A stretch of DNA of 64,000 bases from NCBI GenBank assembly GCA_002502175.1, contig DAPQ01000060.1:7784-71783 (forward strand). The letters are read 5' to 3'. Shown here piece after piece: positions 6,015-58,932 of this stretch (positions are counted from its first letter, which is position 1; each line of letters begins with the position of its first letter). The position numbers and the translations under genes are program-made. The notes beneath the pieces are model-generated. The model did no database searches. It saw only the letters and a list, made by a program, of their open reading frames with translations, and was not told the origin of the DNA. The stretch is from Euryarchaeota archaeon UBA19 (GTDB lineage Archaea; Thermoplasmatota; Poseidoniia; Poseidoniales; Thalassarchaeaceae).

Positions 6015-6038
6015 GAACCTTCCAAAGGTTGGGAGTGA

Positions 6039-14823: not shown

Positions 14824-14863
14824 AACCCTTGCTCGTTCGCCTCCCCTAGGGAGGCGGTGTAAT

Positions 14864-20549: not shown

Positions 20550-20627
20550 TGGTGGGCCTGCCTGGATTTGAACCAGGGTCAAATGGTCCCAAACCATCTA
20601 GCATAGGCCAGACTAACCCACAGGCCC
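20550..20627 (-). tRNA. tRNA-Pro (anticodon UGG), CCA encoded
   Basis: Minus-strand read: acceptor GGGCCTG/CAGGCCC. T-arm CCTGG-TTCAAAT-CCAGG. Anticodon arm GATGG-TTTGGGA-CCATT with UGG in the loop. Discriminator A, then CCA. The D-arm pairing is weak by hand. Confidence 0.6.
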
Positions 20628-37554: not shown

Positions 37555-38508
37555 TCACTCTTGCAGACGGGAAATCAAATCTGCTTTCTTTCCTGAGACT
37601 GGTTTTCCAGCCTCCTTTAGAAGTCCCTTTAGTTCAGAAACCGTCATTGTTTCGTAATCAATCTCAGAGACATCGGATGATTCAGTATCCTCCTCTTGGG
37701 AATCTTCAGCGCCTTCCTCTTCCACTTCCTCAGATGCTTCTTCTGGCTCTTCATCTGAATCAGCCTCTCCAACCTCAGAAAGATCTGCAGATGCTTCTGC
37801 TGCTGCTAAAACATCGACTTCCTCTACTTCAGCGGCTGCAGCAGCGGCCTTCTCCTCAGCATGTATTTCATCCAAGGTAGGACCATCTTCTACGACTACT
37901 CCGCTTTGTAATAACTGACTGCGTCTAATCATAACGGTTCTGACGGGAGTGACCTTGGAAACCGATTCTTTGATTGCTGCTTCCATCGTACCATCGAGTA
38001 GCGCTTTTTGCAATTGAATCCAAGTTGAACTAGCACCCATAGTCAGGATTGTTTCTCTAGCACTAGCCCTCATTGCAGATTTTTGACTGGATTTTACACG
38101 AGATCTTGAAATTAGTAGAGGCTTGAATCTGACGTAATACCCATCATCGGTGACAACATCTACTGTGTCGTCAACCTTTCCACGATGACGGCGGATTTGG
38201 CGGCGAATGTGGTCTTTTAGCACGTTGTGTCCGACAAATTCAGTAAGCGCATCTCCACCGACAGATTCTGTTATTCGGAAAACTACCTGAACGTGCATCT
38301 TCGAAAAGTCGCCATCTAACTCATTTTGCATGATGTCGTATGTTCGACCAATTAGTTGTTCGGAGTCCTCTGCGAGGGTCTCTCCAATGACTCTGAATGA
38401 CCAAGGATTACGAGGTGCTCGAATTGTGAACCAGCGCTTTGCCTTCCACTTGTCTCTCTGCTTGCGTGCCGCTGCCCTTGCTTTTGCGCCCTTTGCCATG
38501 AGAAACAC
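37555..38508 (-). CDS. rps3ae: 30S ribosomal protein S3Ae (eS1) fused to acidic tract and C-terminal SAP domain
   Basis: N-terminus 'KQRDKWKAKRWFTIRAPRNPWSF...IGRT' is S3Ae. Then a ~75-aa Glu/Asp/Ala-rich tract. The terminal 'MTVSELKGLLKEAGKPVSGKKADLISRLQE' fits the SAP consensus. The likely true start is the 4th codon (MAKGAK). Confidence 0.75.
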   Translation of the reverse strand: MFLMAKGAKARAAARKQRDKWKAKRWFTIRAPRNPWSFRVIGETLAEDSEQLIGRTYDIMQNELDGDFSKMHVQVVFRITESVGGDALTEFVGHNVLKDHIRRQIRRHRGKVDDTVDVVTDDGYYVRFKPLLISRSRVKSSQKSAMRASARETILTMGASSTWIQLQKALLDGTMEAAIKESVSKVTPVRTVMIRRSQLLQSGVVVEDGPTLDEIHAEEKAAAAAAEVEEVDVLAAAEASADLSEVGEADSDEEPEEASEEVEEEGAEDSQEEDTESSDVSEIDYETMTVSELKGLLKEAGKPVSGKKADLISRLQE

Positions 38509-38621
38509 CTCGTATCGGGGGCTACCCCGTATGCGAGCCGTGCGACCTGCCTCCAGTATTTGAATGAAAGCCCTAGAGTACCATCAACAGACAAGGGCGC
38601 AGCGTGGTCTTCAAGGAGTGA

Positions 38622-40472: not shown

Positions 40473-41492
40473 TCACAATTTTCCACGAGTTGTCCCTAAT
40501 TTTCGTTTCTTGGACTTTCTCGGCTTTGACGCCCGGGGTTCTGACTCTTCTTCAATTCCTGTACCGCCGAGAGTCAAAGAGCCACTTTCTAGTAACATCT
40601 CTTCTAATGACCCAGCTAGTTCTTCACTTTCGGATGGCGATCTAATAGCGTCTCTAACTGATTGATTGTGGTCTCGTATAGTCTTCTCACGTTCTTCTCG
40701 AGCGGCTTTTATTGAGTCACGGATTTCATTGACTTGGTCAAGCAGTGCTTTCATTTCAGTATGGACTTCATCAGCCGCTGCTTTTGCTTCAACAAATACG
40801 TTGTGAAGCCTATCACCCTCAGCCCTTAGGAAGTCTCTTTCCTCAAATAGTGGCTTAATTTCCTCCCATATTTCATCACCTTGCTTATGGCAATCTACCA
40901 TTGCTTGGTGTTCTGAATCAGCCTCTGCTTTTAGACGATTAATCGATTCATCCATGTCGCCAAGATCTATTGTAATAGACTCATGTTCCTTTACCGCGGG
41001 AAGTAATTCATTTCTCTTACCAATGAGTTTCTTTAGTTCCTTCAGGAGTTTATTTTCATCTTCCAATTTCAGTCTGCCATCAGTTTCTAAACGCCTCTCA
41101 ATCTTGTCAATTTGCCCTTCGGTTTCTGACAATTCAATAACTACTGATTTAGAACCTCTTTCGTCATCCCTACGACCACGTTTTTTCGAAATTATCTCTC
41201 TGATATGACCCTGGATTTCGTCTCTTCTAGCCTTGTGAATTCTTGCCTGGTCTCTAATTTCTTTTTGTTTAGCCTTCATTTCGTCAATAGATTCGCGTAA
41301 ACCTTTGGCTTGTTCTTGAACAGCATTCCGCGAATCGGCTGCTCTACGAGCGTTCTCATTGTGACTATTGCGATTATCTCGCATACGCCTTACTTTGGTC
41401 TCCATAGCGTGTAGGCGACTCCTGAGGTCATCGTCAGGGTTGGTAGTCTCGTCAGACACGGCCACGCCACGAGCGTTTGCCTCTTGAATCAA
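40473..41492 (-). CDS. charged coiled-coil protein (paralog family with 45628/46611/47643 ORFs), basic C-terminal tail
   Basis: Heptad-rich, KR/ED-rich. Shared central block 'IERRLETDGRLKLEDENKLLKELKKLIG' (cf. 'TSALDHKAEKKMIERRKKLI', 'GRFLGKKEKEFVAKMKKLHQEL'). C-terminus 'KPRKSKKRKLGTTRGKL'. Confidence 0.4.
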   Translation of the reverse strand: MIQEANARGVAVSDETTNPDDDLRSRLHAMETKVRRMRDNRNSHNENARRAADSRNAVQEQAKGLRESIDEMKAKQKEIRDQARIHKARRDEIQGHIREIISKKRGRRDDERGSKSVVIELSETEGQIDKIERRLETDGRLKLEDENKLLKELKKLIGKRNELLPAVKEHESITIDLGDMDESINRLKAEADSEHQAMVDCHKQGDEIWEEIKPLFEERDFLRAEGDRLHNVFVEAKAAADEVHTEMKALLDQVNEIRDSIKAAREEREKTIRDHNQSVRDAIRSPSESEELAGSLEEMLLESGSLTLGGTGIEEESEPRASKPRKSKKRKLGTTRGKL

Positions 41493-41504
41493 CCCGATGT
41501 ATGG

Positions 41505-43091
41505 TCAGAGGCCTAGAACTGAACCAATGAATGGTAGAAGCGGTGATAGAATTGCAATAATAGCACCAAGGATAAACAATGCTCCTGTTGTCATTCTAAG
41601 TCTAGTAAAGAGGTCGTTGCGAATCTGAACCGTTAGCACACGACCAGATATTAGATTGCCATCCAAATCCTCTAGACGAATTGTAACAGTAGACTCACCA
41701 GTGCTAGATGGTAACAAACTCTGCCAAATAATTCTAGTAGAGTTTAGGAGGTTTGGAAGTGTGTCGGTGATTTTCGGAGAAAGTATTCCATCGAAAGAAA
41801 TCGATTTATGAGGCTCCACCTTAAGTCGATATTCACAATCATTTGGTCTAAAATCAGGGGTTTGAACCCTTAGTATGAGGTCTTGTATTTCATCGGTTTG
41901 ATTGAGAATGAACGCGAATAAATTCGCAGGGCCAACAACTAAGTTTTCCATATCCACATCAAACCATACATCACCAGATTTTCCGTTCTGATGCCTCATG
42001 TGTAAACGATCGTGAAGGCGGAAAAATGGTGCGCAATCAAGCATTGCTCTCGATAATAATCGGTCCCAGGTTTCTTGACCTAATTCGGGATGCTCAAATA
42101 AGCCATCAATCGAATCGGAGTCAATCATTGATGCCAGTGCAAGTCTAAATTGATTCTCATCTATCACAGATCTCCTCCTAAGATGCAATAAATGTAGCAA
42201 TGTCTCTTGCAGTTCTGTCATAGATTTACCAGGTTTAATTTCAGATTCAACTGTACGCAAATATTCGGATATCCTAACAGCCAATAGTGGATCGATATGG
42301 GCTTTAATTACGTCAGAAAACGGATATCGGAGTAAAGCGGGATGGATAGGTGGGGAGAAGGCGCTCAACATCCCCCATGGCTCATTAGCATTGAAGCGTG
42401 ATTTATTTGATACCAAAAAGGTCCCATGACCAGCTAATAAAGTCCCTGTAGAAAGCGCAACTAACCTTGGAGAAAGGTCTCCGTCGGGTGCCAACCAAAG
42501 GGCGATTCCAAGAAATAGGATTGCTAGAAGAAGGAAACTTATCGTGGCCCCTAACTGCCTTCTTGAACCATTTATGGTCGCACGCATTTCTGCATATCCG
42601 TGGGAGCTTTTGAACGTCAATCCGGCAGTTGTCAAAGATTCAGCCTCATACTGAAAAATCCTCCTAGTTACTGTCAACAACCGGAATAATAAGAGTAAGA
42701 GAGCAATATTTGCAACTAAAATGAATAATGAAAGGAAATGGATTCCAAGGTGCATCTCAACAGGAGCGACTTCTTGCATATGGTCCACCCACCATTCTGG
42801 CGTGGTATTTCTGTAAGAATGAGCAAGGCCGAAATTCACCACTACAATCAATGGTAAGAAGAGGACAAATCGAACCCCCCCACTGATCAGAAGTCTGTCT
42901 ATTCGTAGTAGGGTTCTTTCTTGATTCCTTAAACTATCAACATTTGAAAACATTATTTTTTCAGAATTATCTCCCTCTACAACCTGAAATTGTTTCATAT
43001 TATCCTGCTGAGGCAATGACTCTTCCTCTAGAACTTTTGATGCTAATGAGCTCAGAGCATCTTCCAAATTTGGAATCTCTTCATCCTGCAA
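41505..43091 (-). CDS. large membrane protein, hypothetical (3 N-terminal TM + 1 C-terminal TM)
   Basis: Hydrophobic helices at residues ~70-230 and at the C-terminus 'ALFILGAIIAILSPLLPFIG'. ~250-aa soluble middle region. 3-nt gap to the upstream DtxR-like gene. Confidence 0.4.
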   Translation of the reverse strand: MQDEEIPNLEDALSSLASKVLEEESLPQQDNMKQFQVVEGDNSEKIMFSNVDSLRNQERTLLRIDRLLISGGVRFVLFLPLIVVVNFGLAHSYRNTTPEWWVDHMQEVAPVEMHLGIHFLSLFILVANIALLLLLFRLLTVTRRIFQYEAESLTTAGLTFKSSHGYAEMRATINGSRRQLGATISFLLLAILFLGIALWLAPDGDLSPRLVALSTGTLLAGHGTFLVSNKSRFNANEPWGMLSAFSPPIHPALLRYPFSDVIKAHIDPLLAVRISEYLRTVESEIKPGKSMTELQETLLHLLHLRRRSVIDENQFRLALASMIDSDSIDGLFEHPELGQETWDRLLSRAMLDCAPFFRLHDRLHMRHQNGKSGDVWFDVDMENLVVGPANLFAFILNQTDEIQDLILRVQTPDFRPNDCEYRLKVEPHKSISFDGILSPKITDTLPNLLNSTRIIWQSLLPSSTGESTVTIRLEDLDGNLISGRVLTVQIRNDLFTRLRMTTGALFILGAIIAILSPLLPFIGSVLGL

Positions 43092-43094
43092 GTT

Positions 43095-43745
43095 CTAGTC
43101 CTCCAATCTAACTAAAATACGCTTGGCCAAATCTTCGGAAAATAAGTATGGGGATCCTGAGACATATGTAGTGGAAAGTGTTTTGGTAACGTTGACGCCG
43201 ATGGAGATGTTTTGATTTTCTAGAGTTTTAATATCTTGGCCAGTTAGAGCGATTAATTCAACTACACCGCTACTGCCTTCCGGCATATTGGATATTGGCA
43301 ATAATGGGGATATTATGTCTGGTTCAAATTGCCTGGAAATTTGAGGGACTTTCTCACCCAGATGACTGTACTCTGGATAACCCAATAACTTGTCTAGAGA
43401 CGCCTCTAATTCATCATTAACCGCATGTTCCATTTCACACGCTATGGAATTAACATCTCCTTCAAATCCAATTACATCTGTTAGTAATAATTCAAGAAGT
43501 AATTGTCGTCGCTTAATCTTGCCAGCGATAGCAAACCCTTCTACTGTTAATCTTGAACCCTTGTAAGGAATATACGTCACCAAATCCCGGCCAGCAAGTC
43601 TTTGAATCATCTCCGTTGTTGAAGCATCACTGACTCCCATTATATCGGCTAACATTGAGGTTTTTACAATCGCAGCTGGTTGTTCAGAATGTATCTCAAA
43701 CATCTTCTTGAGATACATTTCCTCGAATTCGCTTAGTTCGTGCAT
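43095..43745 (-). CDS. DtxR/IdeR/MntR-family metal-dependent transcriptional regulator with C-terminal FeoA/SH3-like domain
   Basis: wHTH then 'IKRRQLLLELLLTDVIGF' (cf. RHRLAERLLTDVIGL) then 'ACEMEHAVNDELE' (C-x-x-E-H metal site as in DtxR 'ACRWEHV'). C-terminal 'GSSGVVELIALTGQDIKTLENQNISIGVNV' is SH3-like. Confidence 0.65.
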   Translation of the reverse strand: MHELSEFEEMYLKKMFEIHSEQPAAIVKTSMLADIMGVSDASTTEMIQRLAGRDLVTYIPYKGSRLTVEGFAIAGKIKRRQLLLELLLTDVIGFEGDVNSIACEMEHAVNDELEASLDKLLGYPEYSHLGEKVPQISRQFEPDIISPLLPISNMPEGSSGVVELIALTGQDIKTLENQNISIGVNVTKTLSTTYVSGSPYLFSEDLAKRILVRLED

Positions 43746-43758
43746 GAAAAAACCTCAG

Positions 43759-45651
43759 TTATGGTTCTCCAACCTCTGCTAGGAATTCACAGCGGCAGGC
43801 AGGACACCTAGCCTTTACTGGACGTCTGTTAATTGGGATTTTTAGAGTTTGATCGCAACTAGGGCAAGATAGCAAATCATCCACTGAGCGAGCGGATATC
43901 TCTTGAGGAGTTGAAGTGGAAGGTGAATCATTTTGGGTCGCAATGTTTTCTTCTTCTGAAATTTTGTCTTCATCTTCTGACTCGATCGATTCGACCATGA
44001 ATCGAGCGGTACAAGCAGGACATTTCACGGCACCAGAATGGCTGTTCGGAATGTGCAGACGTTGGTCGCATTCGGGACACGGTATCTCTCTTTTTTCTAC
44101 TGCTGCAGACTTTTTCTTTTCCCCTCTGGCTTCTCTTAGTCGATTAAATCTTGATTTTCCTGTGTCCTCTACGCTTTCCGATACTGTTCGATATAGAACT
44201 AAAATGAACATTACAAGAACTAAACCTGTGACCGTTCCATAAATTGCGGCGACCAAATCAAATGGCAATTCTGCCTCTGCATTATTGTCGGAAAATGTTT
44301 CTATCTCCAAAAGAAGGCTTTCGGTAAGTCCACTAGTTACCCATATTATATGCACATCAACAACTTTTGAATCGGGCCACTGTTCGATGGTGAATTCACT
44401 GCTAAATGATTCACTTGGATTAATTGAAAAAGTTGGAATTGTGTCGAGTATCATGTTATCTGAATTTCGCACTACTCTTACCTCTCCTGCTAAAGTCGGA
44501 GTATTACCATTATTGGTTAAGGAGAACGGGATTTTTACACTTTCACCCACCACAGGAGCTGTGCTTACACCTTCAGAAGTAACCACAAGATCTAGTATAG
44601 GAGGAGTGAGTGTAGTCTGAATTTCAATTTCCTCTTCGGCCGTCCAAGTAACTGTATTTACTCGAATAATTAGTGCGTCTGCTGAAGGATTTCCTAGATC
44701 GAGGTTTAGTTGCCTTCGACCAGGATCCATGGTAATTAGGAAAAATTGTAAATTAGACTCAATAGTTTGATCGATTATTGCAACTTCGATTTCAACTTCC
44801 CTAGATCGGCCATCACTAAGGTAAAGAGAGAGTTCTGAACTTAGGCCATCTTCAAGATTCCAGTCCAAAGAATCAACTACTAACTGGATTGATTGAGGCT
44901 CTAAAACTTCAATCACAGTGGTACCGTTGAGTTCTCTTGCGACACCTCCATTGCTGGAATGAACCTTCCAATCTAGTTTGATTGAGCCTGAAGAAGAGGG
45001 TGAAAATGATGCGGAAACCTCCCTACTCGAACCGGGATTAATCAGTATGGCTTGGCCTTGAATAGGGTCTGACCCCTCAGGTGATATAACCAAACTAACA
45101 GATTCAGGATTCTGACCTTGATTATGGACCAATATTGAAGCGGTAAGTGAATCCCCAACATGGGCAGGCTCGCCAATAAGTGCTATTTCGGAGGAGCTAG
45201 CAGCAGTCAAGTTCAGAGGATTGGGTTCTACTAGTAAAGTAAGACTTTCACTCTGACCCGAAGAATCAATTCCGAAAATCAGATTCAAAACTCCTTCAGG
45301 CAGTGGACCGAATGAAATGTTGACTATCACAGTCGAATCTGAACCCTCAAGGAAACCAGTGAGTTCAGGAGTGGTTTGACCGTCCAATTCCATCACAAAC
45401 CACCACTCATCATGTCCAGCAGTAGTATCACTATTTGATACCTCGATGGATAATTGAATTCGGTCGCCTGCAAAAGCAGATGAATTCTCCGAAGGAAGGG
45501 ATGTTGAACCATCGATGATTGTATTATCCCAATCTGCTGAATTTTCTATACTGAATCTATCCTGGGCACTAACATTTAGCGAAATTAGGGTTACAAATAC
45601 AACAGAGGCTGTTATCACAAGCAAGTTGTGAGGACGAACGCCTGTATTCAT
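43759..45651 (-). CDS. surface protein: signal peptide, large extracellular Ig/CARDB-like region, single TM, cytoplasmic tail with two zinc ribbons
   Basis: Signal 'LVITASVVFVTLISLNVSA'. TM 'LVAAIYGTVTGLVLVMFILVLY'. Cytoplasmic 'CPECDQRLHIP...VKCPACTARF' and 'CPSCDQTLKIP...ARCPACRCEF'. Acidic linker between them. Confidence 0.45.
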   Translation of the reverse strand: MNTGVRPHNLLVITASVVFVTLISLNVSAQDRFSIENSADWDNTIIDGSTSLPSENSSAFAGDRIQLSIEVSNSDTTAGHDEWWFVMELDGQTTPELTGFLEGSDSTVIVNISFGPLPEGVLNLIFGIDSSGQSESLTLLVEPNPLNLTAASSSEIALIGEPAHVGDSLTASILVHNQGQNPESVSLVISPEGSDPIQGQAILINPGSSREVSASFSPSSSGSIKLDWKVHSSNGGVARELNGTTVIEVLEPQSIQLVVDSLDWNLEDGLSSELSLYLSDGRSREVEIEVAIIDQTIESNLQFFLITMDPGRRQLNLDLGNPSADALIIRVNTVTWTAEEEIEIQTTLTPPILDLVVTSEGVSTAPVVGESVKIPFSLTNNGNTPTLAGEVRVVRNSDNMILDTIPTFSINPSESFSSEFTIEQWPDSKVVDVHIIWVTSGLTESLLLEIETFSDNNAEAELPFDLVAAIYGTVTGLVLVMFILVLYRTVSESVEDTGKSRFNRLREARGEKKKSAAVEKREIPCPECDQRLHIPNSHSGAVKCPACTARFMVESIESEDEDKISEEENIATQNDSPSTSTPQEISARSVDDLLSCPSCDQTLKIPINRRPVKARCPACRCEFLAEVGEP

Positions 45652-46614
45652 TGTCTGACCCTCGGAGCGGGTCAGTGTATCAAGGAAACCCTAATTCAAG
45701 GTCACGTAGTGACCTTTATGATGGGCCCTAATTTCCGCCGTTTGCATATGGAGTCTGAAGGCCTGCTAGCGGTGACGCCTGACGAATTGGCGCAGGCTTT
45801 GTTAGATAGGAGGGTTTTGCTGAAGGAGCAATTACCCACTGTTATTCGTACACTCGAGGCCGAGGAACAGAACCTTGCTCCAAAGCTATCTCGTTCAGCA
45901 GATAAACACAAACAGGCAAATGAAATTGTTGCTAAGTTGAAAGTGGAACGCGACCAAGCACAAATCGCAGCCCGAAATCTGCTCCCGAAGGTAAAGGAAT
46001 ATCGGGATAAATTGGTGGAATCTGGTGGGATGGTAAACCTTGACCCAGATTGGAAAAAAGAAAAATTGTTTGAAGAATTGGATGAAATCGAAGAAAATAT
46101 CCAGACTTCGGCGTTAGATCACAAAGCTGAGAAAAAGATGATTGAACGTAGAAAAAAGTTGATTCAACAAAACGAAAAATGGCTCAAGGAAAGAAGAGAT
46201 TCAAACCCGGAAATGGCAGATTACATCGATTCTAGAAGAGAGATGTCTTACCAATTTACAATTGCCAACAAGGCTCATAGAAATATGATCAAAGCCGTGG
46301 AAAAGGCGCAACCGTTGCATGAGAAAAAAGTAGCGATGGAGGCAGAAATAAGAGACGTCAGAAGACAATTGGACAGAGCCAAAGAATTACTGTCTCAATC
46401 TGACCAAGCAATAGAACATTGGCAACGCCGATTAAAGGATGGGTATGGAGAATTAGGACTAGGATTCCCTGACCTCCTTAAAGACATGATTCAAGTCCAG
46501 GAGGGAGGAGACTCTAGTTTCGCTAAGAGGCACAAGAAAAACAAACAGAATTCAAAGAAAAATAGTGTTGAGAATGGGCGAATAAACTCCGATTCGAGGG
46601 GTGAGGAAGAATGA
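45628..46614 (+). CDS. charged coiled-coil protein (paralog family); probable start at 45721 or 45748
   Basis: Heptad-rich. Central block 'DWKKEKLFEELDEIEENIQTSALDHKAEKKMIERRKKLIQQNEKW'. Basic C-terminus 'KRHKKNKQNSKK'. Confidence 0.4.
   Translation: MRTNACIHCLTLGAGQCIKETLIQGHVVTFMMGPNFRRLHMESEGLLAVTPDELAQALLDRRVLLKEQLPTVIRTLEAEEQNLAPKLSRSADKHKQANEIVAKLKVERDQAQIAARNLLPKVKEYRDKLVESGGMVNLDPDWKKEKLFEELDEIEENIQTSALDHKAEKKMIERRKKLIQQNEKWLKERRDSNPEMADYIDSRREMSYQFTIANKAHRNMIKAVEKAQPLHEKKVAMEAEIRDVRRQLDRAKELLSQSDQAIEHWQRRLKDGYGELGLGFPDLLKDMIQVQEGGDSSFAKRHKKNKQNSKKNSVENGRINSDSRGEEE
45698..45716. promoter_or_regulatory. perfect 19-bp palindrome AAGGTCAC-GTA-GTGACCTT in divergent intergenic region (candidate metalloregulator operator)
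   Basis: Exact 8-bp inverted repeat with a 3-bp spacer. Lies between the minus-strand operon that encodes the DtxR-like regulator and the plus-strand coiled-coil genes. Confidence 0.4.
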
Positions 46615-47576
46615 GCGATGGTTTGTTCGATGATCTTGAGGAGCTACCTCATGATGAAATCGAAGAGAAGGTCAAACAATTAGACCGTGAATTACGCTCA
46701 TTAGATGAAGAATTCAACTCACTGCGTCAAGAACGAAGAAACCAAGTGGAAATTGTAAAATCGTTGAGAGGAGCATTCGATGGAATTCAAGAGGTGAATT
46801 CTGAGAGGCGAATGCTGTTGAGAGAATTTCATGAAATAAAGAAAAAGGCAGACAAGCATAGAGCATTACGAGATAGAGTCAACCTATCTATTCCGCCACC
46901 TGCTTCTGTATTAGAAGAATGGATGGCAGACACACACTCTAAGTTAACCACCATAGATAACGACCTTACAGCAGTCCCCACCATAAATAGGGAATTGGAT
47001 TCATTTCGACGATTTTTCGAATTACAAGCAGCTGTGGTACGTAAGCGTGAGGCAGAAGATGCTCATGCACAGTATGTAGTTCAAATTGAGGATTTACGAA
47101 AAGTTACATCTAAATTAGACGCAACAAAGAAGGCTGGCAAGGATGCCGCAGATTCAGCAACAGAAAATAATGAAGTTAATCCTGACAACATAACTCGTAG
47201 TGAAATTAGGAAAATGAGCAAGCGAATCAGCAGCATAGATAAGCGGTTAGACACGATTAAATCACAACGTAAGAAATTACGAAGGGAATCAGGTAGAGTC
47301 CGGTCATATCAGAAAATAACTTCAGGAAGAGGGAGAAAAATCCGTCTAACTGATGTAAAAGAGAGAGCAAGTAAAGGAGGTTCACTAAACGCCAATGAAT
47401 TATCTGCTTTACTAGATTCAGGCAGTTTGACAGGTATCACAAATGAAGCAAGCAAACCGGAGTCTACGAAATCAAACGCACCTAGGAAAGGTAGAACGGG
47501 AAAGAAAGGAATGCGAAGACTAGGTGTCACTAGAGGTGGACCAAGGAAGGGTAACTCCGCTAGTCGGAGGGAATGA
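46611..47576 (+). CDS. charged coiled-coil protein (paralog family), Arg/Lys-rich C-terminal tail
   Basis: 4-nt overlap with the upstream paralog. Heptad-rich. C-terminus 'PRKGRTGKKGMRRLGVTRGGPRKG'. Confidence 0.4.
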   Translation: MSDGLFDDLEELPHDEIEEKVKQLDRELRSLDEEFNSLRQERRNQVEIVKSLRGAFDGIQEVNSERRMLLREFHEIKKKADKHRALRDRVNLSIPPPASVLEEWMADTHSKLTTIDNDLTAVPTINRELDSFRRFFELQAAVVRKREAEDAHAQYVVQIEDLRKVTSKLDATKKAGKDAADSATENNEVNPDNITRSEIRKMSKRISSIDKRLDTIKSQRKKLRRESGRVRSYQKITSGRGRKIRLTDVKERASKGGSLNANELSALLDSGSLTGITNEASKPESTKSNAPRKGRTGKKGMRRLGVTRGGPRKGNSASRRE

Positions 47577-47642
47577 GGAAAAAAACACCTCAAATGAACT
47601 TATATGGTAAACTTAGGACGTTAATTCAAGGGGCATGATTGT

Positions 47643-48524
47643 ATGAAGATGGAAAGCGGGGAAATTCGCGGGATTCTTCAACCACTCTGTGACGATATTC
47701 AAGAACAGATATCCTACAATCGGGAAGAAAGGGACCAATGGAATTCGAAAGTCCGTAAATTACTCGACGAACGCAACGAGTTAAATCGGCAAGTTAAGGA
47801 ATTAATCACAGAGGTGCAGAATCAAAAATCTCTACGAGATGATGCAAACCAAACCGTTAGAGAATTAAAAGAAATAAGGGCTGAAAGGACTGAGGTACTA
47901 AGAGTAATTAGGACCGATTTTAGGGAGAAAATAGCCGAAAATGGCTCTCAAGAAGAAAGACAGGAGAAACACGATAAAACTCGCTCACCAGGAAGAATTA
48001 GAACAGAAATAGACCGTTTGGAAAAGCAATACAACGAAGGTCGGTTCCTTGGTAAAAAGGAAAAAGAGTTCGTCGCTAAAATGAAAAAGTTACATCAAGA
48101 ACTTAGAGAAGCTAAGGAAAAGAAATCCGATGGTGGAATAAGAGAATTAAAGATTCAACTTAGAGATGCTGAAAAGAAACAAGAAGACGCCCACAAGAAG
48201 GTGAAGCGGGCAGTAATAGGCGCTCAAGAAGCCCATGACTTGATGGCTGAATTATCGGAAGAGGTCGATAGATTACGAGAGAAGGCAAATTCAGCTCAGT
48301 CAGGAGTTACTCGGGCTAAAAGAGAAGCAGATTCTCTCCATGGAAGATACATTGTATCGTTGAGGTGTATACATTCCATGCAAGATTTACTCAAGGCTCT
48401 GGAAACTAGAGAAGGCGGTGTTACAGAGGACGACGAGCAAGTCGAAGTCGCTGATCTAATGACACGACTAATGTCTGGAGACACATTATCTACTGACGAA
48501 ATCATGGCGCTTCAGAGGAATTGA
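47643..48524 (+). CDS. charged coiled-coil protein (paralog family)
   Basis: Central block 'GRFLGKKEKEFVAKMKKLHQELREAKEKK' and heptad-rich flanks. 293 aa. Confidence 0.4.
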   Translation: MKMESGEIRGILQPLCDDIQEQISYNREERDQWNSKVRKLLDERNELNRQVKELITEVQNQKSLRDDANQTVRELKEIRAERTEVLRVIRTDFREKIAENGSQEERQEKHDKTRSPGRIRTEIDRLEKQYNEGRFLGKKEKEFVAKMKKLHQELREAKEKKSDGGIRELKIQLRDAEKKQEDAHKKVKRAVIGAQEAHDLMAELSEEVDRLREKANSAQSGVTRAKREADSLHGRYIVSLRCIHSMQDLLKALETREGGVTEDDEQVEVADLMTRLMSGDTLSTDEIMALQRN

Positions 48525-49455
48525 TTTCGTAAGTTCGACCATTCCTAGAATGAAGAAGCTCAATTCCACCCTCATGGTCAAGTAGCCAGCCCGGAATAGC
48601 AGAAGGAATTTCTTCTAGTATCGCCCCATCTGAATCAAATGACCACCTTTCTAACATAGTGCTTCTGACCGAACTTCCTTCAATGGCTTCTTCTTGTTTT
48701 TGTCTTCGGGACTCTAAAATCCCTACTAACATAACTCTCAAATCGGTATCTGTCAACCATTTATTTTCTTTGGCAATAATTAACCGTAGGTTTGGAGGGG
48801 TATTCAGAACTTGATCTGAATCATGGGCCTCCAAACGATTAGCCCATGGGTCTTCTAATACACTCCAATTACCCTCTTCCCTCTCTCCATCAGGACTGAC
48901 TAATGCACCATTTATGTTCCATATACGAGATTGTAGAAGTATTGGTTTAGCATCAACATATTCCATTCCTCTTTGTATACACCATTCATCAAGGTCAATT
49001 ATTGGAGGCAAAATGACTAACTTATTCGGAAGTTTTTCTTCAATAATTTCTTCAGTGATTTCTTCATTAGGGGTTATTTGAGGAATTTTGGCTTCTAAAT
49101 CTCCGCGTAAAACTGCTTCTCCAATCCAACGGCTTAAGACATCAGGATTCCAAAGTTCAATTTTCAATTTTGAAGACAATATTTCCTTAGCCTGGTCTTC
49201 AAATTCTCTCTCACTCAAAATCCAATGAGGGCCACTAGGAGCATCTACAAGCCATCTTTCAGCTTCCGCGACACTTACTGGAATAATCGCTTTAGGCACA
49301 TGCCAAACATGCACTGAAGAACCTGTATCCTCTTCTAATTCAGGAATTTTCTCAGCTACTCCAAGGCACCGGAAACCAACAGTTTCGACTAGATTACTAG
49401 CCTCGGATAATCTAACTCCGCGAAGATTGAGTAAATCCCCCACGGTATTATCCAT
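48502..49455 (-). CDS. hypothetical acidic protein in the position normally occupied by nusA downstream of rpl30e
   Basis: 317 aa with no KH (GxxG) motifs. Follows rpl30e on the same strand after an 85-nt gap. Confidence 0.35.
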   Translation of the reverse strand: MDNTVGDLLNLRGVRLSEASNLVETVGFRCLGVAEKIPELEEDTGSSVHVWHVPKAIIPVSVAEAERWLVDAPSGPHWILSEREFEDQAKEILSSKLKIELWNPDVLSRWIGEAVLRGDLEAKIPQITPNEEITEEIIEEKLPNKLVILPPIIDLDEWCIQRGMEYVDAKPILLQSRIWNINGALVSPDGEREEGNWSVLEDPWANRLEAHDSDQVLNTPPNLRLIIAKENKWLTDTDLRVMLVGILESRRQKQEEAIEGSSVRSTMLERWSFDSDGAILEEIPSAIPGWLLDHEGGIELLHSRNGRTYEINSSEAP

Positions 49456-49540
49456 GTCTTCTGGTAGTCGTTTATCCCTTGAAGGGAATCCCTACAAAGT
49501 ATGATTTGGCAGCGAAAATGAAGGCTAATATTCTACGCCA

Positions 49541-49858
49541 TCAGAGGTTTGTACTCAGAGTTAGAAGGTCTGACTGACCTGGGTCTATAACACATAATGC
49601 ACTAACTGGGAATGGTTTGGCACAAGCCGCACCCAACTGCCTGTTTACCATCGTAACTCTATGAACTGGGATATCAGGATGGCTAGTTGTCAAACTGGAT
49701 ATGTAATCCTCCGGACAGTTTGCCGCCACCAATACCAATCTGGCATCTCCTTTATTGCATGCACTTGTCGTTTGGCGTTGGCCAAATAGTACATTTCCTG
49801 TGCTAATTCCTTGTTTTAGTTGTCTTGCTAGATCCATTAGAATTCCTCCTTCAAGCAT
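49541..49858 (-). CDS. rpl30e: 50S ribosomal protein L30e
   Basis: '[13 protein letters not shown]'-type motif ('[16 protein letters not shown]'). Position downstream of rpoA'' is canonical. Confidence 0.8.
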
Positions 49859-51431
49859 CTGCCTCTTCAGGTATGTAAAACAAATCTACACTACCTGTTC
49901 CAAGGGCTACTGGTTGACCAACGATAATATTCTCAGTTACACCTCTTAGGTGGTCTCTTTCACCAATTACACCAGCACGAAGTAAGTGGTTAACAGAGAC
50001 TTCGAACGCTGATCTTGCTAGAATACTGTGTTTCGTACCGCTAACTCCGTGTCGTCCAATCGCACGAACTTCACCTTCGCTAGTCATCACGTCAGCCACA
50101 GTGATTAGGTGCCTAGTGTCGACCTCCAAACCTGCCCCTTCAAGAGTATCTTTCATCTCATTGACGATTGCTTGCCTTGCCGCTTCAACTCCTAGATATT
50201 GGTAAATTTCATTGATATTGTTTGTGTAAGTTCTGCCTCTGTCTACACCTGCAAATTCACTGACCTTTGCTAGATTTGAGCCAATTGTGGCGATGTAATA
50301 CTCGCCGGTATCCTTGTTTGGACCCTGAACATTTGCTCGAATAATATCTGGCAATCCCTTTAATCTAAGTTTCTTGACTTTGTCCTCAAGTTGCAGTAAT
50401 GCGGTGTATGTTGGAGGATCATTTGCCAATGTTGCTAGATCATCTTCTTTGGTAACTCCAGGAATTACCTTGAGGACCTTAGGCTTGTCTTCATTATCAG
50501 CCTGAATGTATAGTCGAAGAGCTCTTTGCAGTTTATCTCTAACCTCAGCACCAGTCATTTTCTTCAAACGTAGGTTTGAGGCGTTTAAATCTAAATTAAG
50601 GTGCCTTTGAGCGACATCCACATCGATGGAAGCGATGTCTCTAGTCGTAGTTGTTTCAATTGAGGCCGCAATCGCTTGAACCTTCTTTTCATTGGTTCGC
50701 AGAGGCTTACCTTTGGAATCATTCTCATCGAGATAAACAAGCATTGTCGGTGTTTTTGGCACCTTCCTTGCATCAACAATTTCGATTACTCTCGGAAGAC
50801 CTTGGGTTACGTTAACCGTAGCTACACCAGCATAGTGGAAAGTACGCATTGTCATCTGAGTCCCAGGCTCTCCAATTGATTGAGCAGTGGTTATCCCTAC
50901 AGCCTCGTGTGGATCGACTCTTGACATTTCCATGCCGGATGCGGCACAAGTTACGACCTTGCGTGCTTCCGCTGCGGTAAGTTTCTTCTTTCCTCTAGAT
51001 AGCAAGCCATTGACTAAATCATTGATTGTCTTCGGTGTAATTCGAATGTTTTCCTTTGCGGCTGCGTCTGAAAGACTGGTGAACATTGGGTTCTCAATAT
51101 CTAAATCACGGTGGATTTGACGCATCTTGTCTTCCGAGTCATATTCTTGCAGAGGAAGAACGCTCTTCTTTCTGCGTCTTGTAGCAACACGGCGACGGAT
51201 CAAAGTCTTCTCCGCTGCCTTTTCCTTTTGAGCCGCTTTGGTAGAGCCTTGAATGACTTCAGATATATTCTGTGCCATTCCAGAATCGGTGGCGCAAATT
51301 TGTGCGATTTCTCCAGCGGTAAGCACCTTCACGTCATCCCACTTGCGGTCATCTGCAAGGCGATGTGCATATTCCTCTGCGATTCCAAGATCCATCAACT
51401 TCTTTTTGGTTGCACTCTTGACTACCATCAC
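49851..51431 (-). CDS. rpoA2: DNA-directed RNA polymerase subunit A'' with ~110-aa N-terminal (HhH)2-like extension plus Arg-rich linker
   Basis: A'' core blocks '[25 protein letters not shown]', '[10 protein letters not shown]'. The N-terminus '[26 protein letters not shown]...' is paralogous to the RpoH N-terminus. Linker '[14 protein letters not shown]'. Confidence 0.85.
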
Positions 51432-54400
51432 TCATCACCTCCTAGAGCATCATCGAGAACCTTGGTGATATCAAATGGCATACCCTTTCGACTTCTAGCT
51501 GGGTCAATTCCATCTTCACCATACTCGAATTGGATAATCCTATCGGCAGTATTTCTAACTGAGCCGTTTCCATCTTCAGACACCTTGAGGTCGTCCATTG
51601 CGTTGATTAGACGGCGTTGCATATATCCTGACTTAGAGGTACGAACCGCGGTATCGACTAGGGACTCTCGTCCAGATACTGATAGCATGAAGAACTCAGT
51701 TGGCTCAAGCCCTTGCTTAAACGAAGAAGAGACGAATCCCTTTTCTTCCGCTCCTTTTACTCCACGAGGGAAGTGGGAAAGTACTCTGTCTTGGTAACCT
51801 CGCTCTAGACGCTTTCCACGGACCTTTGGTTGTCCTATCGAACCTGCCATCATCGCTAGGTTATCCATTGAACCACGAGCTCCCGATGTTGCCATGATTA
51901 CAGCAGAGTTATCCTCTCCAAGGTATGACTTAGCAACATTACCAGATTCTGCTTTAGCGGAATCTAGAATTTGCAGTATGTTCTCTTCAAGCGTCTCGAT
52001 TGGAGTTCTTCCCGGTCGAGTCTCATATCCACGTCCATTTTTGCCAAACTTTGCCAATTCTGCGTCTACTTCGTCACTAGCTCGGACGTTGATTTCAGAG
52101 ATTTCCTTAATCGCCGCGAGGGGTAAGTCTTCGTCATCGATTCCAGTAGTGAATCCAAGAGATGTACAAATTGCGATTGTCATCTTTGTCATTCTGTTTA
52201 GGAATTCAGCGCCACGGTTAGTACCGTGAGTCTGAACTACCGCATCAAGTAATCTACCATCTTCTGCACCAATTCCTCGCTTGTCGATAGTACCACTGAC
52301 AATACCAGTAGAAGTAACATTGACTTCGTCTCCACTTCTACTCGTGTAGTTTAATTTGAATCCTGCAGGGACAATTAGGCTGAGGAGATCAGCACCTCTG
52401 TAACCTACCATACCATCCTTAGTTGTGACTTCTTCTGGCATCTCTCCATCCCAGCCTACTGAACCCAATACTTCCATAGCCAGTTCCTTAGGTAGAACTC
52501 TGTCACCATGAGTTAGAAGATAAGCTCCTGAAATATGGTCATGTATTCCTCCAATAACCGAACCACCGTATCTTGGAGTAATGATGTGTTCCTGAACTCT
52601 CATCAAAATCTTCGCTTCGGCCCTTGCCTCTTCAGATTGTATGACGTGTAGATTCATTTCATCTCCGTCGAAATCAGCATTGTAGGGTGTACAATCTGCT
52701 AGATTGAATCGGAATGTCTTGCCTTGCATAACACGAATTTCGTGAACCAGCATAGACATTCTGTGAAGTGAAGGCTGCCGATTGAAGATTGCTACGTCCC
52801 CGTCGATAAGATGTCTTTCAACAATTACACCAGGTCGCGGGTTACCGTCCCTATCGTAAGTTGAAAGTCTGTCTTCAACTTCAGTTCGGTATACATTACC
52901 GTGCTCGTCTTCCACCGCAGGACTGCCACAATGAGGGCAGTACACTTCAAGGTGCTCTGGGAAATATTCGTCAGGGTTGTTCTGCTCCCATACCCATCGA
53001 TTATGGATAATTGCTCGAGGGTCGTCCTCAGCTAGTTGACGACCATTTTCGTCTTCACCTCGTAGGTTGGAAATTGTTGTGTCAAGATCTACTGACCAAA
53101 CATCCTCGAGGTCACCCAGTTCATTCCTTCGCATCTGCTTCATTAGTTCAAGCCCAGGAAGGAAGTTTGGTGCAGGGAGTACTGTGTTGAGGTCTGGCCG
53201 ATATCCATCATAGGGCTCTTCGTCGCTTCCGCAATGACAATCTGGATTCAAACAACGGAATCCAGCCCAGATGAATTTTGTCCTATCAGTGATTCTTACT
53301 CTGAAACTATCTCCTCTGATAATGTAGTTAACACCAGGATGGACATCCGGCCCACGCATAATCATCCTTCGTAATTGTTCTCGGTTCCTGCTAGTTGCAC
53401 GGATTGGAACTGTCAATTCCTTGGCTGTTTGAACTGGAACACCAACCTCGTTAATTCCAAGATTTGGATCTGGGCTGATTACAGTACGAGCACAGAAGTT
53501 AACTCGCTTTCCGGAAAGATTGCTTCGGAATCTTCCTTCCTTACCCTTGAGGCGTTGTGAAAGAGTCTTCAGAGGCCTTCCAGAGCGGTGCCTTGCTGGT
53601 GGAATACCGCTGGTCTGATTATCGAAATATGTTGTAACGTGGTATTGCAATAATTCCCAGAGATCTTCAACAATTAATTGCGGTGCTCCAGCGTCACGGT
53701 TTTCTCGTAGTCGTTGGTTGATTCTGAGAACGTCGACCAATTTGTGAGTGAGGTCATCTTCGGAGCGATCTCCGCTATCCAAAGTAATTGATGGACGTAC
53801 TGTTATTGGCGGCACTGGAAGAACCTTCATTATTGACCACTCAGGTCTACTAGAATTGCTATCCATTCCAAGGAATATCAAATGTTGGTCTGGAATCTTT
53901 TCTAGCCATTCTCGGATATCTCTTGCATTCAACTTGTGTTCCCCTTTGTCGGCTTTCTTCTCCTTGAAAGTAGAAGGCTTGTCTAGGAGAATCTTACCTT
54001 GTTCCGCGCCACAGTGCATGCAAATAGCACGCTTGGCGCTGGAACATTCCTTCTCGATTTCCTTGATGATTTTCTTGAATTCAGTGGAACCTACACCATG
54101 CTTTCGCATTACATCATGAACACGGTCACGGTAGTAATCTTGTTCAGACTTTTCTGGATCTAGAGGGTGAGTGTCTGCTGCACTGTGCAGAAGAATTTGG
54201 CTACATTCATTGCAAGTGCACTTCAGAGCCGTTTTGATTAGAGCGGTGAATCCGATGTGCATAACAGGTAGTTCAAGCGCGATATGCCCGAAATGACTCG
54301 GGCACTCGTCATGCTTATTTCCACACGTCTCACAGCGAATTCCTGGGTCAATGACTCCCATTTTTGGATCCATCAATCCTTGCTTGAACGCGTGTCCATC

Positions 54401-54526
54401 ATCCTTGTAAGTGTCTGCTGTCTTTACTTCAACTGCCGACATCTTTCGAATCTCATTTGGATCCATTAGGCTGAACTTGATCGAATCTATCCTCTTTGGG
54501 ATTTTTGCTACTCCACGGGCACTCAT
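51428..54526 (-). CDS. rpoA1: DNA-directed RNA polymerase subunit A' (with lineage-specific zinc-ribbon insertion)
   Basis: Zn sites '[17 protein letters not shown]', 'CTCNEC...CMHCG'. '[12 protein letters not shown]' active site. '[11 protein letters not shown]'. 1032 aa versus ~880 typical. Confidence 0.9.
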
Positions 54527-57500
54527 CTTCGGTCCTCCAATTCAAGGCGCATAGCCACTCCAAGACTCTTCATTTCGTCCAGAAGTAGCTTGAAAGCGTA
54601 GGAGGTTTGTACCGAATGAACATCTGCTCGATCGCCACAGACCGGGCAAACCGGTGTCCTCCTCTTCCAATCATAATACGCGATATGTCCACAGCCACTG
54701 TTGTTACAAACCATCAGTGGCCAACCATCCGATTCATCGAGCAGTCTATCTTTGATTACCATCGAAGCACCGTGGGCAATTAGACAATCTCTCTCCATTT
54801 CTCCGAACCTGAGACCACCTTGTCGGGCTCGTCCCTCTGTTGGCTGTCGAGTCAAGATTTGTACTCGACCACGGCTTCGGGCGTGCAGTTTGCTGCTAAC
54901 TAAGTGGTGTAGGCGCTGATAGAAAATTACTCCAGTGAAAATTTCAGCTTGGAAGGCTTCTCCGGTTTCACCGCTAATCATCGGTTCTCTTCCTGTGTGC
55001 GCGAAACCATTTCTAAGTAGTCCAGAGCGAAGTGATTCTTCCTTTTCTCCGCTAAACGCAGTACCGTCAATCTGTCGACCTTCCATGGAACCAACCTTTC
55101 CACCAATCATCTCTAAAACGTGTGCTACTGTCATTCTAGATGGAATAGCGTGAGGATTGATAATTAGGTCGGGAACGATACCGTCAACAGTGAATGGCAT
55201 ATCCTTCTCATCTACGAGTCTGCCAATTACACCCTTCTGACCGTGTCGACTTGCGAATTTATCACCTAATTCAGGTACCTTTTCTGTCCTCAAAGTGATG
55301 CGGCACAGAAGTCCGGAATCGAGTGATTCTGTAACGAATACATTGTCTACCCATCCAGATTCACCATTACGAACCATCATTGATGATTCTCGGCGTTCTT
55401 GGGCTTGTAGGAAATGTCCATGTGATTCTTCAAGGAATCTTGGAGGGCTTGTTTTTCCTACTAAGACTCCGGTATCTGCACCAACACTTGACAAATGAGT
55501 CTCTGGAGTTGGAAGACCATCCCTTTCTAAGTGGACGTAGCTCTCCCAAGACTTGAGGCCCTTTACCTCGTCAAGTCCAGTTCCTGGAACTTCAATTTGC
55601 TCTTTTTGTCCACCAGGGAATTGTTTGTTCTCGGCATTGTATGTGCGAATGAATGATGAGCGGCCCAGCGATCTCTCGACTGCTGCTCTATTCATAACCA
55701 CGGCGTCTTGCATGTTGTATCCATGATGGCTCAATATAGCCACAACGAAATTTTGTCCGCCCGGTCTTTGGGCGAAATTAGTAGTCTTCATCGAGCGTGT
55801 TCCGACAATTGATTGCTGTGGATAATGCATTACGTGCATACGGGTATCTGGCCTTAGGCGGTAGTTTGCACTTGGAAGACCAAGGCTTTGCTTCACCATT
55901 GCTGTACCACCGGTAACTCTTGGAGTAGAGTTGTGCTCAGGATAAGGCACTAGTGATGCACATACACCTAGAATTAGTTGAGGGTCTATCTCGACGTGAG
56001 TGTAGGCGAGAACTGTGTTTTGCCTCTTCTGCTTTCGTAGAATAGCCTCAAGATCCTCTTGATAGTAGTTTAGTGGTACACTGAAATTCTCTATCTCCGA
56101 ATCCCCATTAGGCATCTTTACTTCTACGCGTAGTTTTGCTTTCTTAATTTGAGAAGCACCTAGGTTTACCCATTCCACGGAAGCTGGATTTATTGGACGA
56201 CCATGCTTTGGAGAAACCATAGGTAAATCGAACGGCCGAGGTGCAATAAGGAGGTCTTCCTCTTCTTCTGCATCCACCCATTCAACTACACCGTTTGATA
56301 CTAAATCAGCAAACGTCCATTCTCCTGATTTTATCAAGTCGAGATGGTCTTTGGAAAGTACCAAATCACCGTCTTCGAGGACCAAAAGAGGCCTCAGTAT
56401 TCGACCTCTGTCAGTGTTGATGAAAATATCTCTATTTGCCCCGTCATATCGTATACTTACCTCGGGACGGATTCTTCCCTGGCGCCTTCGACGCTTGAAT
56501 TGATTAACCAACTTAGTGGCGTTTTTGTGTAATCCGAAAATGTCTCCATTAACGTGTACACGGAATCCTTCAGCCCATCCGGCAGGTGAAGAATCAACTC
56601 CTGCTTCGCTTAGGAGTTGCTTTACCTCGTTCTCATGAACTTCTTCTGAGACGTCAATCATCTGAGATGCGTTCTTGACCAAGCCACAATTCTGCCCTTC
56701 GGGCGTCTCGTTTGGACAGAGCCTACCCCATTGAGTGGGGTGCAGATCTCGAGCTTCGAAGTGAGGTTGGCTGCGAACCAAGGGGCTCGTTACTCTACGC
56801 ATGTGTGACAGAGCCGCAAGATAGGTAGTCCTGTCCAGAAGTTGACTGACACCGCTACGTCCGCCAACCCAATTTCCGGTTGCCAAAGCGTGCATTATTT
56901 TCTGAGTTAGAACATCAGGTCGCAAGCAGGCGTTGATTCTTAATTCGCGCTTTCTGTTGTGATGGCGCTCTAATTGATACTTTAGATCACGTGCAAGTTG
57001 TTGAAGGCTTACTCGGAATAGATCTTCGACTAAGTCCCCTGCTAATCTAACTCTCTTGTTAGCGTAATGGTCCTTGTCATTAGGGTCTTGGTCTGTAATT
57101 GCCATTTCAAGGACTTGGCGTACAATTCGGCCGAGGAATATTGCTTTCTTCTCTCGGTGTTCGGGGCCTGAACCAAGGTGAGGTAGTAGTTCCTTGTCCA
57201 ACAAATTCTGAATTCTCGCTTCTCGATATTCCTTCTGCTGACCAGCGGCGAATTTCTTCTCTAGCCATTGAAGGGCTTCCTCGGAAGTCTCTACGTTATA
57301 TTCTTCGTTATCTTTGACATCGTTTAGATTAGCAACAGTATACTTCATCGCTTCAGCTGGACCTGCAATTGCAGTGAAAATTTCCTTATCATTCTCCATG
57401 CCGAGAGAACGCATTAGCAGAACCACTGGAATTGGAGTTGTTCCTGCACTTGGAATCTTAACCATAAGCATACCATCACGGCGCTTTTCTATGTTCAGTG

Positions 57501-58858: not shown

Positions 58859-58932
58859 CGGGCCTGGAGGGATTCGAACCCCCGGCCACCGGGTTAAAAG
58901 CCCGGCGCTCTACCTGACTAAGCTACAGGCCC
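58859..58932 (-). tRNA. tRNA-Lys (anticodon UUU), CCA not encoded
   Basis: Full cloverleaf by hand: acceptor GGGCCTG/CAGGCCC. D-arm GCTT-AGTCAGGTA-GAGC. Anticodon arm CCGGG-CTTTTAA-CCCGG. T-arm GGGGG-TTCGAAT-CCCTC. Discriminator G. Confidence 0.8.

Follow-up and report, generated by a model that had tools for sequence, protein, structure and literature searches.

A conserved palindromic element, putatively an operator, between divergent operons beside a DtxR-family regulator gene in Thalassarchaeaceae

The subject of this analysis is a short palindromic element in a 64-kb stretch of the genome of Euryarchaeota archaeon UBA19 (contig DAPQ01000060.1; all 64,000 nucleotides (nt) of the stretch are hereafter called the window). 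Two operons diverge here from a 96-bp gap, one of them on the minus strand and including the gene of a DtxR-family metalloregulator, the other on the plus strand and encoding coiled-coil proteins. The gap, bounded by the minus-strand gene start at 45651 and the plus-strand ATG at 45748, holds, at 45698-45716, the sequence AAGGTCACGTAGTGACCTT, whose 8-bp arms are perfectly inverted copies of each other on either side of a 3-bp spacer. The initial annotation of this DNA had placed an exact palindrome at this very position, and the sequence agrees with it in arm length and spacer. Its description as a "perfect 19-bp palindrome" is true of this genome, whereas among orthologues only 17 bp are conserved: the outermost pair (45698/45716) falls outside the conserved dyad, position 45698 being A, T or G in different orthologues. 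The possibility, raised in the same annotation, that the motif could fall inside a coding region is not borne out, as the dyad is intergenic between the starts 45651 and 45748.

Within the window alone, the palindrome is statistically unremarkable. Perfect 8+3+8 inverted repeats occur there four times, with approximately 1.5 expected; perfect repeats with 8-bp arms and spacers of 0-10 occur 24 times, with 13 +/- 4 expected; and at least one match to the palindrome pattern at no more than three mismatches was seen in 20 of 100 shuffles. Thus, the significance of the palindrome comes from its conservation across orthologues and not from its rarity in the window.

To assess this conservation, metagenomes were scanned with the regulator protein, yielding 14 orthologous loci with 68-89% identity, 13 of which reach the intergenic region. 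The palindrome is kept at 0-2 mismatches in all 13 loci covering the site, and when these loci are aligned, 22 nt (AGGTCACGTAGTGACCTTTATG) show no variation at all, in contrast to the flanks, which are variable and include an indel. A scan of the GTDB species genomes with an alignment of the metagenome regulator proteins added at least 80 Thalassarchaeaceae loci (L188-L267; 48-94% identity), and AGGTCAC-N3-GTGACCT was observed at 0-2 mismatches in approximately 67 of the 77 genome loci that cover the site. Overall, the 17-bp core is kept in about 80 of 90 orthologous loci, with the identity of the regulator going down to approximately 50%. The spacer is GTA in the clade of the window and ATA in the Thalassarchaeum clade.

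In a set of 78 unique sequences, the frequency of the majority base is 0.88-1.00 in the left arm (45699-45705) and 0.96-1.00 in the right arm (45709-45715), the mean for the flanks being 0.55 at 45652-45676, 0.63 at 45692-45698 and 0.61 at 45723-45747. As this set had been picked by a pattern fixing positions 45707-45718, only the figures for the left arm and the flanks are independent; in the set chosen by the neighbouring protein both arms are at least 85% identical. The conserved stretch at the dyad is about 22 nt long, versus approximately 8 nt at ordinary promoters of the same loci. Among 41 distinct variants of the site, scored at eight putative pairs, there are no compensatory changes, and each variant breaks the complementarity; hence it is the sequence that is selected, as for protein recognition, and not base pairing in a hairpin. 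Judging from these alignments, purifying selection has acted strongly on the sequence of the dyad across Thalassarchaeaceae, and the earlier proposal of a genuine cis-element in the divergent promoter region is supported by its strong conservation in the orthologous loci. The close relatives of the regulator come from metagenome-assembled genomes (MAGs) named Candidatus Thalassarchaeaceae, Thalassarchaeum or Marine Group II, so that the archaeal window is assigned to Marine Group IIb, order Poseidoniales. One 10-kb contig with this archaeal locus and the dyad (L237, NZEN01000001.1) is filed under an 'Opitutia bacterium' MAG, a label that is probably due to binning contamination.

The promoters on both sides of the dyad were delineated by phylogenetic footprints of the neighbouring promoters, since a consensus derived by k-mer enrichment from the window alone was too noisy. 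The footprints of other first-gene promoters in the same loci are approximately 8 nt long (TTTGATGG at -33..-26 and CTTGATAC at -34..-27; TTCAAG is closer, at -28..-23). We read such conserved footprints about 30 nt before the ATGs of first genes as probable TATA boxes of leaderless genes. The internal genes of the operons, that of the regulator included, have GAGGT-type Shine-Dalgarno motifs and tiny gaps, while the first genes are without them; leaderless first genes are the usual archaeal pattern.

At the coiled-coil operon, the TTTA of the TATA-like box (Table 1) is invariant, and TTTATG, TTTAAT or TTTTAATG is found in every clade, including the palindrome-free ones; TTTATG occupies -33..-28 relative to the conserved ATG at 45748, with TTTAAT or TTTTAATG in other clades. 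Of the two starts previously considered for the first coiled-coil gene, 45721 and 45748, the latter is conserved as ATGGA (GTG in one clade), and codon-like conservation begins there. The ATG at 45719-45721 is replaced in many orthologues, which have TTTATT, TTTAAT or TTTAAC; it is a part of the TATA-like box and not a start codon. On the other side, TTGATA within GGGTTTCCTTGATAC is at -32..-27 from the ATG at 45651. The block that contains it is found in every clade, with 11 of 15 columns at least 95% conserved among the 78 unique sequences, and has the form CGTATGAATGAAACCC in the palindrome-free clades.

The two putative core promoters stand back to back, with their TATA boxes 32 bp apart, and the dyad fills the space between them. 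Its right arm abuts the TATA-like box of the coiled-coil operon and hence takes the position of the TFB recognition element (BRE) of that promoter, while 6-8 bp separate the left arm from the conserved block at the promoter of the regulator's operon. The dyad therefore overlaps the core promoter of the gene that it would regulate, with the promoter elements taken from footprints. Copies of CCCTAATT were noticed around the dyad at 45583-45590 (minus strand), 45689-45696 and 45726-45733, with seven in the window and 2.6 expected. As a conserved flanking element they were rejected, since they are not kept as such in orthologues; only C.AATTT is moderately conserved, and it is possibly a promoter-proximal element.

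Table 1. Features of the divergent locus (positions in the window)
Feature	Position	Strand	Remarks
DUF7121 coiled-coil protein, 339 amino acids (aa)	40473..41492	-	fourth operon gene; PF23435 E=2.1e-8
Lineage-specific membrane protein, 528 aa	41505..43091	-	third operon gene
DtxR-family metalloregulator, 216 aa	43095..43745	-	second operon gene; PF01325 + PF02742
CARDB-domain membrane protein, 630 aa, C-terminal Cys-X2-Cys pairs	43759..45651	-	first operon gene; PF07705 E=3.5e-10
Conserved block GTATCAAGGAAACCCT, minus strand GGGTTTCCTTGATAC	45677..45692	-	putative BRE + TATA of the membrane-protein/DtxR operon
19-bp perfect palindrome of the initial annotation	45698..45716		outer pair specific to the UBA19 genome
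Conserved 17-bp dyad, putative operator	45699..45715	.	AGGTCAC-GTA-GTGACCT, arm centres 10 bp apart
TATA-like box TTTATGAT, putative promoter of the coiled-coil operon	45715..45722	+	-33..-26 from ATG 45748; first T common with the right arm
C.AATTT, moderately conserved	45727..45733	+	between TATA box and start codon; conserved in the close clade, weaker family-wide
First coiled-coil gene, 288 aa, presumably leaderless	45748..46614	+	heads the three-gene coiled-coil operon
Second coiled-coil gene, 321 aa	46611..47576	+	weak coiled-coil-type matches only
Third coiled-coil gene, 293 aa, DUF7121	47643..48524	+	PF23435 E=1.4e-10

The adjacent operon does encode a DtxR-family regulator, as had been proposed. 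The protein has both the PF01325 winged-helix domain (residues 4-63; E=2.5e-12, 47.2 bits at a cutoff of 26) and the PF02742 metal-binding and dimerisation domain (residues 67-134; E=3.8e-15, 56.1 bits at a cutoff of 27), and in PDB it matches DR2539 (1.3e-17), IdeR and DtxR (1e-11 to 1e-13), and also SloR, ScaR and MntR. The primary metal site consists of M10, C103, E106 and H107, which align to M10, C102, E105 and H106 of IdeR and do not vary among the 81 orthologues; this set of Met, Cys, Glu and His ligands is, as we presume, typical of Fe(II) sensing. The ancillary metal site (H79, E83 and H98 of DtxR) is not conserved in the regulator, the equivalent positions varying among the orthologues between Q and E (81), E, Q, K and R (85), and N, D, S and H (99). 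Approximately 80 residues follow the dimerisation domain; no match to the Pfam FeoA (SH3-like C-terminal) domain was found in the regulator at E<0.01, and the alignment with the archaeal MntR model of NCBIfam, over residues 3-177, scores 88 bits at a cutoff of 350. As the scores of the NCBIfam equivalogs are below their cutoffs (MntR NF047407, 87.9 bits versus 350; DtxR NF053665, 47.5 versus 290), the protein is assigned at the family level only, and the name does not tell which metal it is specific for.

The regulator gene is preceded by a 13-nt gap and the GAGGT Shine-Dalgarno-like motif, and is predicted from the sequence to be co-transcribed from the promoter region of the dyad. The 528-aa membrane protein downstream of it has no match in Pfam or NCBIfam; among its 293 homologues, all source-named matches are Thalassarchaeaceae or Marine Group II MAGs. 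Its AlphaFold2 model (predicted local distance difference test score 69) comprises transmembrane helices, a helical domain, an immunoglobulin-like beta-sandwich and a C-terminal helix, and a Foldseek search of this model against PDB returned only the generic immunoglobulin-like beta-sandwich and no hint of a metal transporter. In the opposite operon, the second coiled-coil gene overlaps the first one by 4 nt and has GAGG upstream. The coiled-coil proteins have only DUF7121 or SMC/Rad50-like coiled-coil matches. The gene order is the same in all 12 loci with listed open reading frames (ORFs), 16 kb each, from both palindrome-bearing and palindrome-free clades. Taken as a whole, the cluster at 40473-48524 comprises the DtxR gene, two genes for membrane proteins and four for coiled-coil proteins, three of which match DUF7121, and lies 0.4-1.3 kb from RNA polymerase genes (49851-58209).

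The dyad is very probably a transcription-factor operator. The best single hypothesis about its ligand is the DtxR homologue encoded at 43095-43745, which would imply metal control, and we would give this assignment about an even chance. The size of the dyad is that of a DtxR-family operator (approximately 17-21 bp, one or two dimers), with the 7-3-7 layout and arm centres 10 bp apart; by analogy, this size and spacing would fit a dimer of winged-helix proteins. The dyad is absent from ten loci, which form one clade of nine plus the singleton L250. In the nine-locus clade the recognition helix reads ASTTQML[TSN]RL or ASTTEMLIRL, versus ASTTEMIQRL elsewhere, and this clade alone has changes at helix positions 45 and 48 (E45Q; Q48 to T, S, N or I). 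The palindrome-free clade with the variant protein ASTTQMLTRL has ATAGAGACATTTTAATGA in the respective region. In DtxR homologues, a residue of the recognition helix was reported to contact a G-C pair in a base-specific manner (bioRxiv 10.1101/2024.02.12.579695).

A number of observations weigh against this assignment. L250 has lost the dyad with the helix ASTTEMIQRL unchanged, and the covariation between the helix and the dyad reflects a single evolutionary event, or two at the most, and is confounded by phylogeny. As the gene order never breaks in the loci compared, linkage of the dyad to the regulator is inseparable from that to the operon of the coiled-coil genes. In clades that lack the left arm, the right arm with the TATA box survives as ATAGAGACA-TTTTAATG, so that a part of the conservation should be ascribed to promoter function. 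The GC-rich dyad is unlike the DtxR, IdeR, MntR, TroR and SirR boxes with which it was compared, and no recognisably metal-related gene was found among the neighbours with Pfam, NCBIfam and Foldseek. What ties the dyad to the DtxR homologue is its proximity together with one clade-level covariation that has one exception.

A further point of the same kind is the lack of a regulon in the DNA covered. No second site was found at up to three mismatches in the 64-kb window, nor at up to two mismatches in 80 orthologous loci of 16 kb, and searching the window for matches at up to four mismatches and for GGTCAC/GTGACC hexamers near promoters gave nothing beyond the dyad itself. The sequence GGTCAAATCATGACC (GGTCA-N5-TGACC) at 6061-6075 has near-identical geometry and lies in the divergent promoter region, 96 bp long (6015-6110), of the genes for a PfkB kinase and a tRNA-splicing endonuclease. 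As a second site it was rejected: its right arm is not kept in the orthologues L268-L271, where only GACCGAC and ACTCAAGCGA are conserved, and the similarity is probably due to chance. The length of this region follows from the start of the tRNA-intron endonuclease gene (6039-7109), which most likely is the in-frame ATG at 6111 and not 6039, giving a protein of 332 aa, as called in orthologous contigs. Thirty-nine loci with the 14-nt core on viral contigs were likewise discarded as chance matches, having flanks unrelated to the locus; the two spacer-matching viral core sites that were checked (L057 and L036) fall within unrelated ORFs or at their edge.

Of the alternatives to the DtxR homologue as the ligand, the operator of a different dimeric factor, encoded elsewhere and acting, for example, on the coiled-coil (DUF7121) cluster, with the DtxR gene a bystander or co-regulated, appears rather unlikely, while drawing on some of the same observations: the motif differs from the known DtxR-family boxes, L250 keeps the helix without the dyad, and the dyad overlaps the BRE and TATA box of the coiled-coil operon and not the core promoter of the regulator's operon. 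Its TCAC...GTGA core also recalls the sites of the TrmB family (TATCAC-N5-GTGATA). Yet the 16 kb with the same gene order in twelve loci show no further gene for an apparent DNA-binding protein, the changes in the helix coincide with the loss of the dyad, and a divergent layout of regulator and target is the commonest one for local regulators. If, instead, the block were mainly an extended core promoter, with an unusual BRE and TATA box bound by TFB and TBP, the left arm would be a lineage-specific upstream element and the symmetry incidental. This could account for the right arm and the TATA box being the most invariant and persisting as ATAG[AT]GAC[AC]-TTT(T)AATG without the left arm. We consider it improbable, as the left arm, outside the reach of any normal BRE, is nevertheless 88-100% conserved in the 78 unique sequences, the footprints of other promoters at these loci span only about 8 nt, and two 7-bp arms that mirror each other exactly, with centres 10 bp apart, suit a dimer and not TFB.

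A structural role of the palindrome, as a hairpin or cruciform (the stem of an RNA leader, a terminator or a structural signal in DNA), is hardly to be believed, even if the single-stranded DNA fold has -6.6 kcal/mol (z = -3.4): there are no compensatory changes, each arm variant breaking the pairing; the dyad is upstream of both putative TATA boxes and hence probably untranscribed; a terminator would make no sense at a site between divergent genes; and there is no Rfam match. A functionless chance palindrome, which would agree with such palindromes being no rarer in the window than expected, is refuted by the conservation, the core being kept in approximately 80 orthologous loci, whereas the surrounding intergenic DNA has diverged to a majority-base frequency of about 55-63%.

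Returning to the dyad at 45699-45715 as a putative operator of a dimeric winged-helix factor, most likely the DtxR homologue (43095-43745), we propose the following mechanism. Both first genes would be leaderless, with TATA boxes approximately 30 nt upstream of their ATGs. A dimer on the dyad would occupy the BRE and the upstream edge of the coiled-coil promoter, excluding TFB and TBP, and the coiled-coil operon would be repressed; on the side of the regulator's operon, the bound dimer would touch the edge of the pre-initiation complex, which may result in weak autoregulation of either sign. The binding would be metal-dependent, as suggested by the invariant primary metal site; the coupling to metal availability that the initial annotation proposed would follow from these conserved ligands only. 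As the dyad overlaps the BRE and TATA box of the coiled-coil operon and is 6-8 bp off the core promoter of the regulator, the coiled-coil operon is probably the primary target. Accordingly, the initial annotation, which had seen a strong candidate autoregulatory operator here, was right as regards a cis-element, while the position of the dyad favours the coiled-coil operon, with autoregulation being secondary.

More specifically, and tentatively, an Fe-type DtxR sensor may have been recruited as a dedicated local regulator of a Marine Group IIb cluster of four coiled-coil (DUF7121/SMC-like) and two membrane proteins, via the GC-rich AGGTCAC-N3-GTGACCT, unlike known DtxR boxes, the recognition being due to a Glu in the specificity position of helix alpha-3. 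If so, metal availability would control a structural or cell-envelope system and not metal transport, and iron might be linked to a conserved gene cluster near the RNA polymerase genes. The archaea of Marine Group II rank with the most abundant ones in the plankton, and iron is often limiting in the surface ocean; no pure-culture isolate of the group is known to us. Nothing was found in the literature on Marine Group II promoters, operators or this gene cluster, and nothing usable on the motif, DUF7121, COG1340 or promoters of Poseidoniales. The locus offers a cleanly footprinted putative operator and two putative leaderless promoters, approachable with one recombinant protein, and the dyad-free clades with the altered recognition helix constitute a natural experiment on the specificity of the DtxR family. 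Should the regulator not be the one that binds, the dyad would still mark another regulator of the cluster.

Several other features of the window were noticed in passing. At 12636-12658, just past the stop of the upstream gene, two 11-bp arms form the perfect palindrome TCCGTTCCCTT-C-AAGGGAACGGA; 1 nt downstream of it is an ATG at 12634, where the ORF 10613-12763 may start. The palindrome has the 13-mer TCCCTTCAAGGGA in common with the promoter region of the gene 48502-49455 (49475-49487), of which the orthologues conserve only TT.AAG, at -28..-23. Another perfect palindrome, CGCCTCCC-CTA-GGGAGGCG, at 14838-14856, lies in the 40-bp gap between the same-strand genes 13792-14823 and 14864-16294 and could be an operator or a terminator-like element. 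Upstream of the gene 37555-38508, at 38509-38621, approximately 50 nt (ACGGGGTAGCCCCCGATACGAGGTG, CATTCAAATACTGG) are conserved in about 70 orthologous loci, far above a normal promoter footprint; the start may have been called wrongly, with the N-terminus extending into this region, or else it may hold a small RNA or a regulatory element. The only Rfam matches at the gathering threshold in the window are two tRNA genes on the minus strand, 20553-20627 and 58859-58932.

Among known systems, the iron box of Corynebacterium DtxR and Mycobacterium IdeR (19 bp, TTAGGTTAGCCTAACCTAA) is likewise a palindromic operator of 17-19 bp by or under a DtxR-family protein, and the primary ligands Met10, Cys102, Glu105 and His106 have counterparts in this regulator. 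The palindrome, which the initial annotation had compared with DtxR/IdeR-type 19-bp operators, does not resemble the iron box in sequence: only three of the 19 positions match in register to the consensus, the sequences are unrelated, and the dyad is GC-rich. The iron box has 9-bp arms and a 1-bp centre, the dyad has 7-bp arms and a 3-bp spacer; besides, the ancillary site is not conserved here, the promoter is archaeal and not of the sigma-70 type, and no metal-uptake genes are under the dyad. The glycolytic motif of TrmB/TrmBL1 in Thermococcales, TATCAC-N5-GTGATA, the effect of which depends on its position relative to BRE and TATA, is an archaeal dyad with the same TCAC...GTGA core; it differs from the dyad in the N5 spacing, compared to N3 between heptamers, and in the outer bases, and no TrmB-family gene was seen nearby. 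Another archaeal DtxR homologue, MDR1 of Archaeoglobus fulgidus (Bell et al. 1999), is said to be an autoregulated, metal-dependent repressor with operators downstream of the TATA box that blocks the recruitment of RNA polymerase, and its operon reportedly encodes an ATP-binding cassette metal transporter. Thus MDR1 is encoded within the operon that it regulates, as proposed here, whereas the dyad coincides with the BRE of the divergent operon or lies upstream of it, and the genes concerned encode coiled-coil and membrane proteins.

The closest solved relative is DR2539 of Deinococcus radiodurans (dr1709 promoter; PDB 8PVT/8PVZ/8PW0; E=1.3e-17), one dimer of which binds a pseudo-palindrome of about 21 bp via consecutive major grooves. 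Its alpha-3 helix begins with Ala, likewise A41 in our regulator, and has Gly at the fifth position, where Glu45 is found here; it is a bacterial repressor, whose target, unlike here, is the promoter of an Nramp manganese transporter. The geometry is found also with TroR of Haloferax volcanii, an archaeal protein of the DtxR family that recognises the 7-3-7 semi-palindrome TTTAGGC-N3-CCTAAA approximately 100 nt upstream of the start codons of iron-uptake and storage genes, with a demonstrated regulon (PMC10783522). The half-site differs, the dyad having no resemblance to TTTAGGC-N3-CCTAAA or to TTTwGAnnnnTCwAAA. A palindromic operator beside a local regulator is a familiar arrangement; its half-site and its cargo are unusual.

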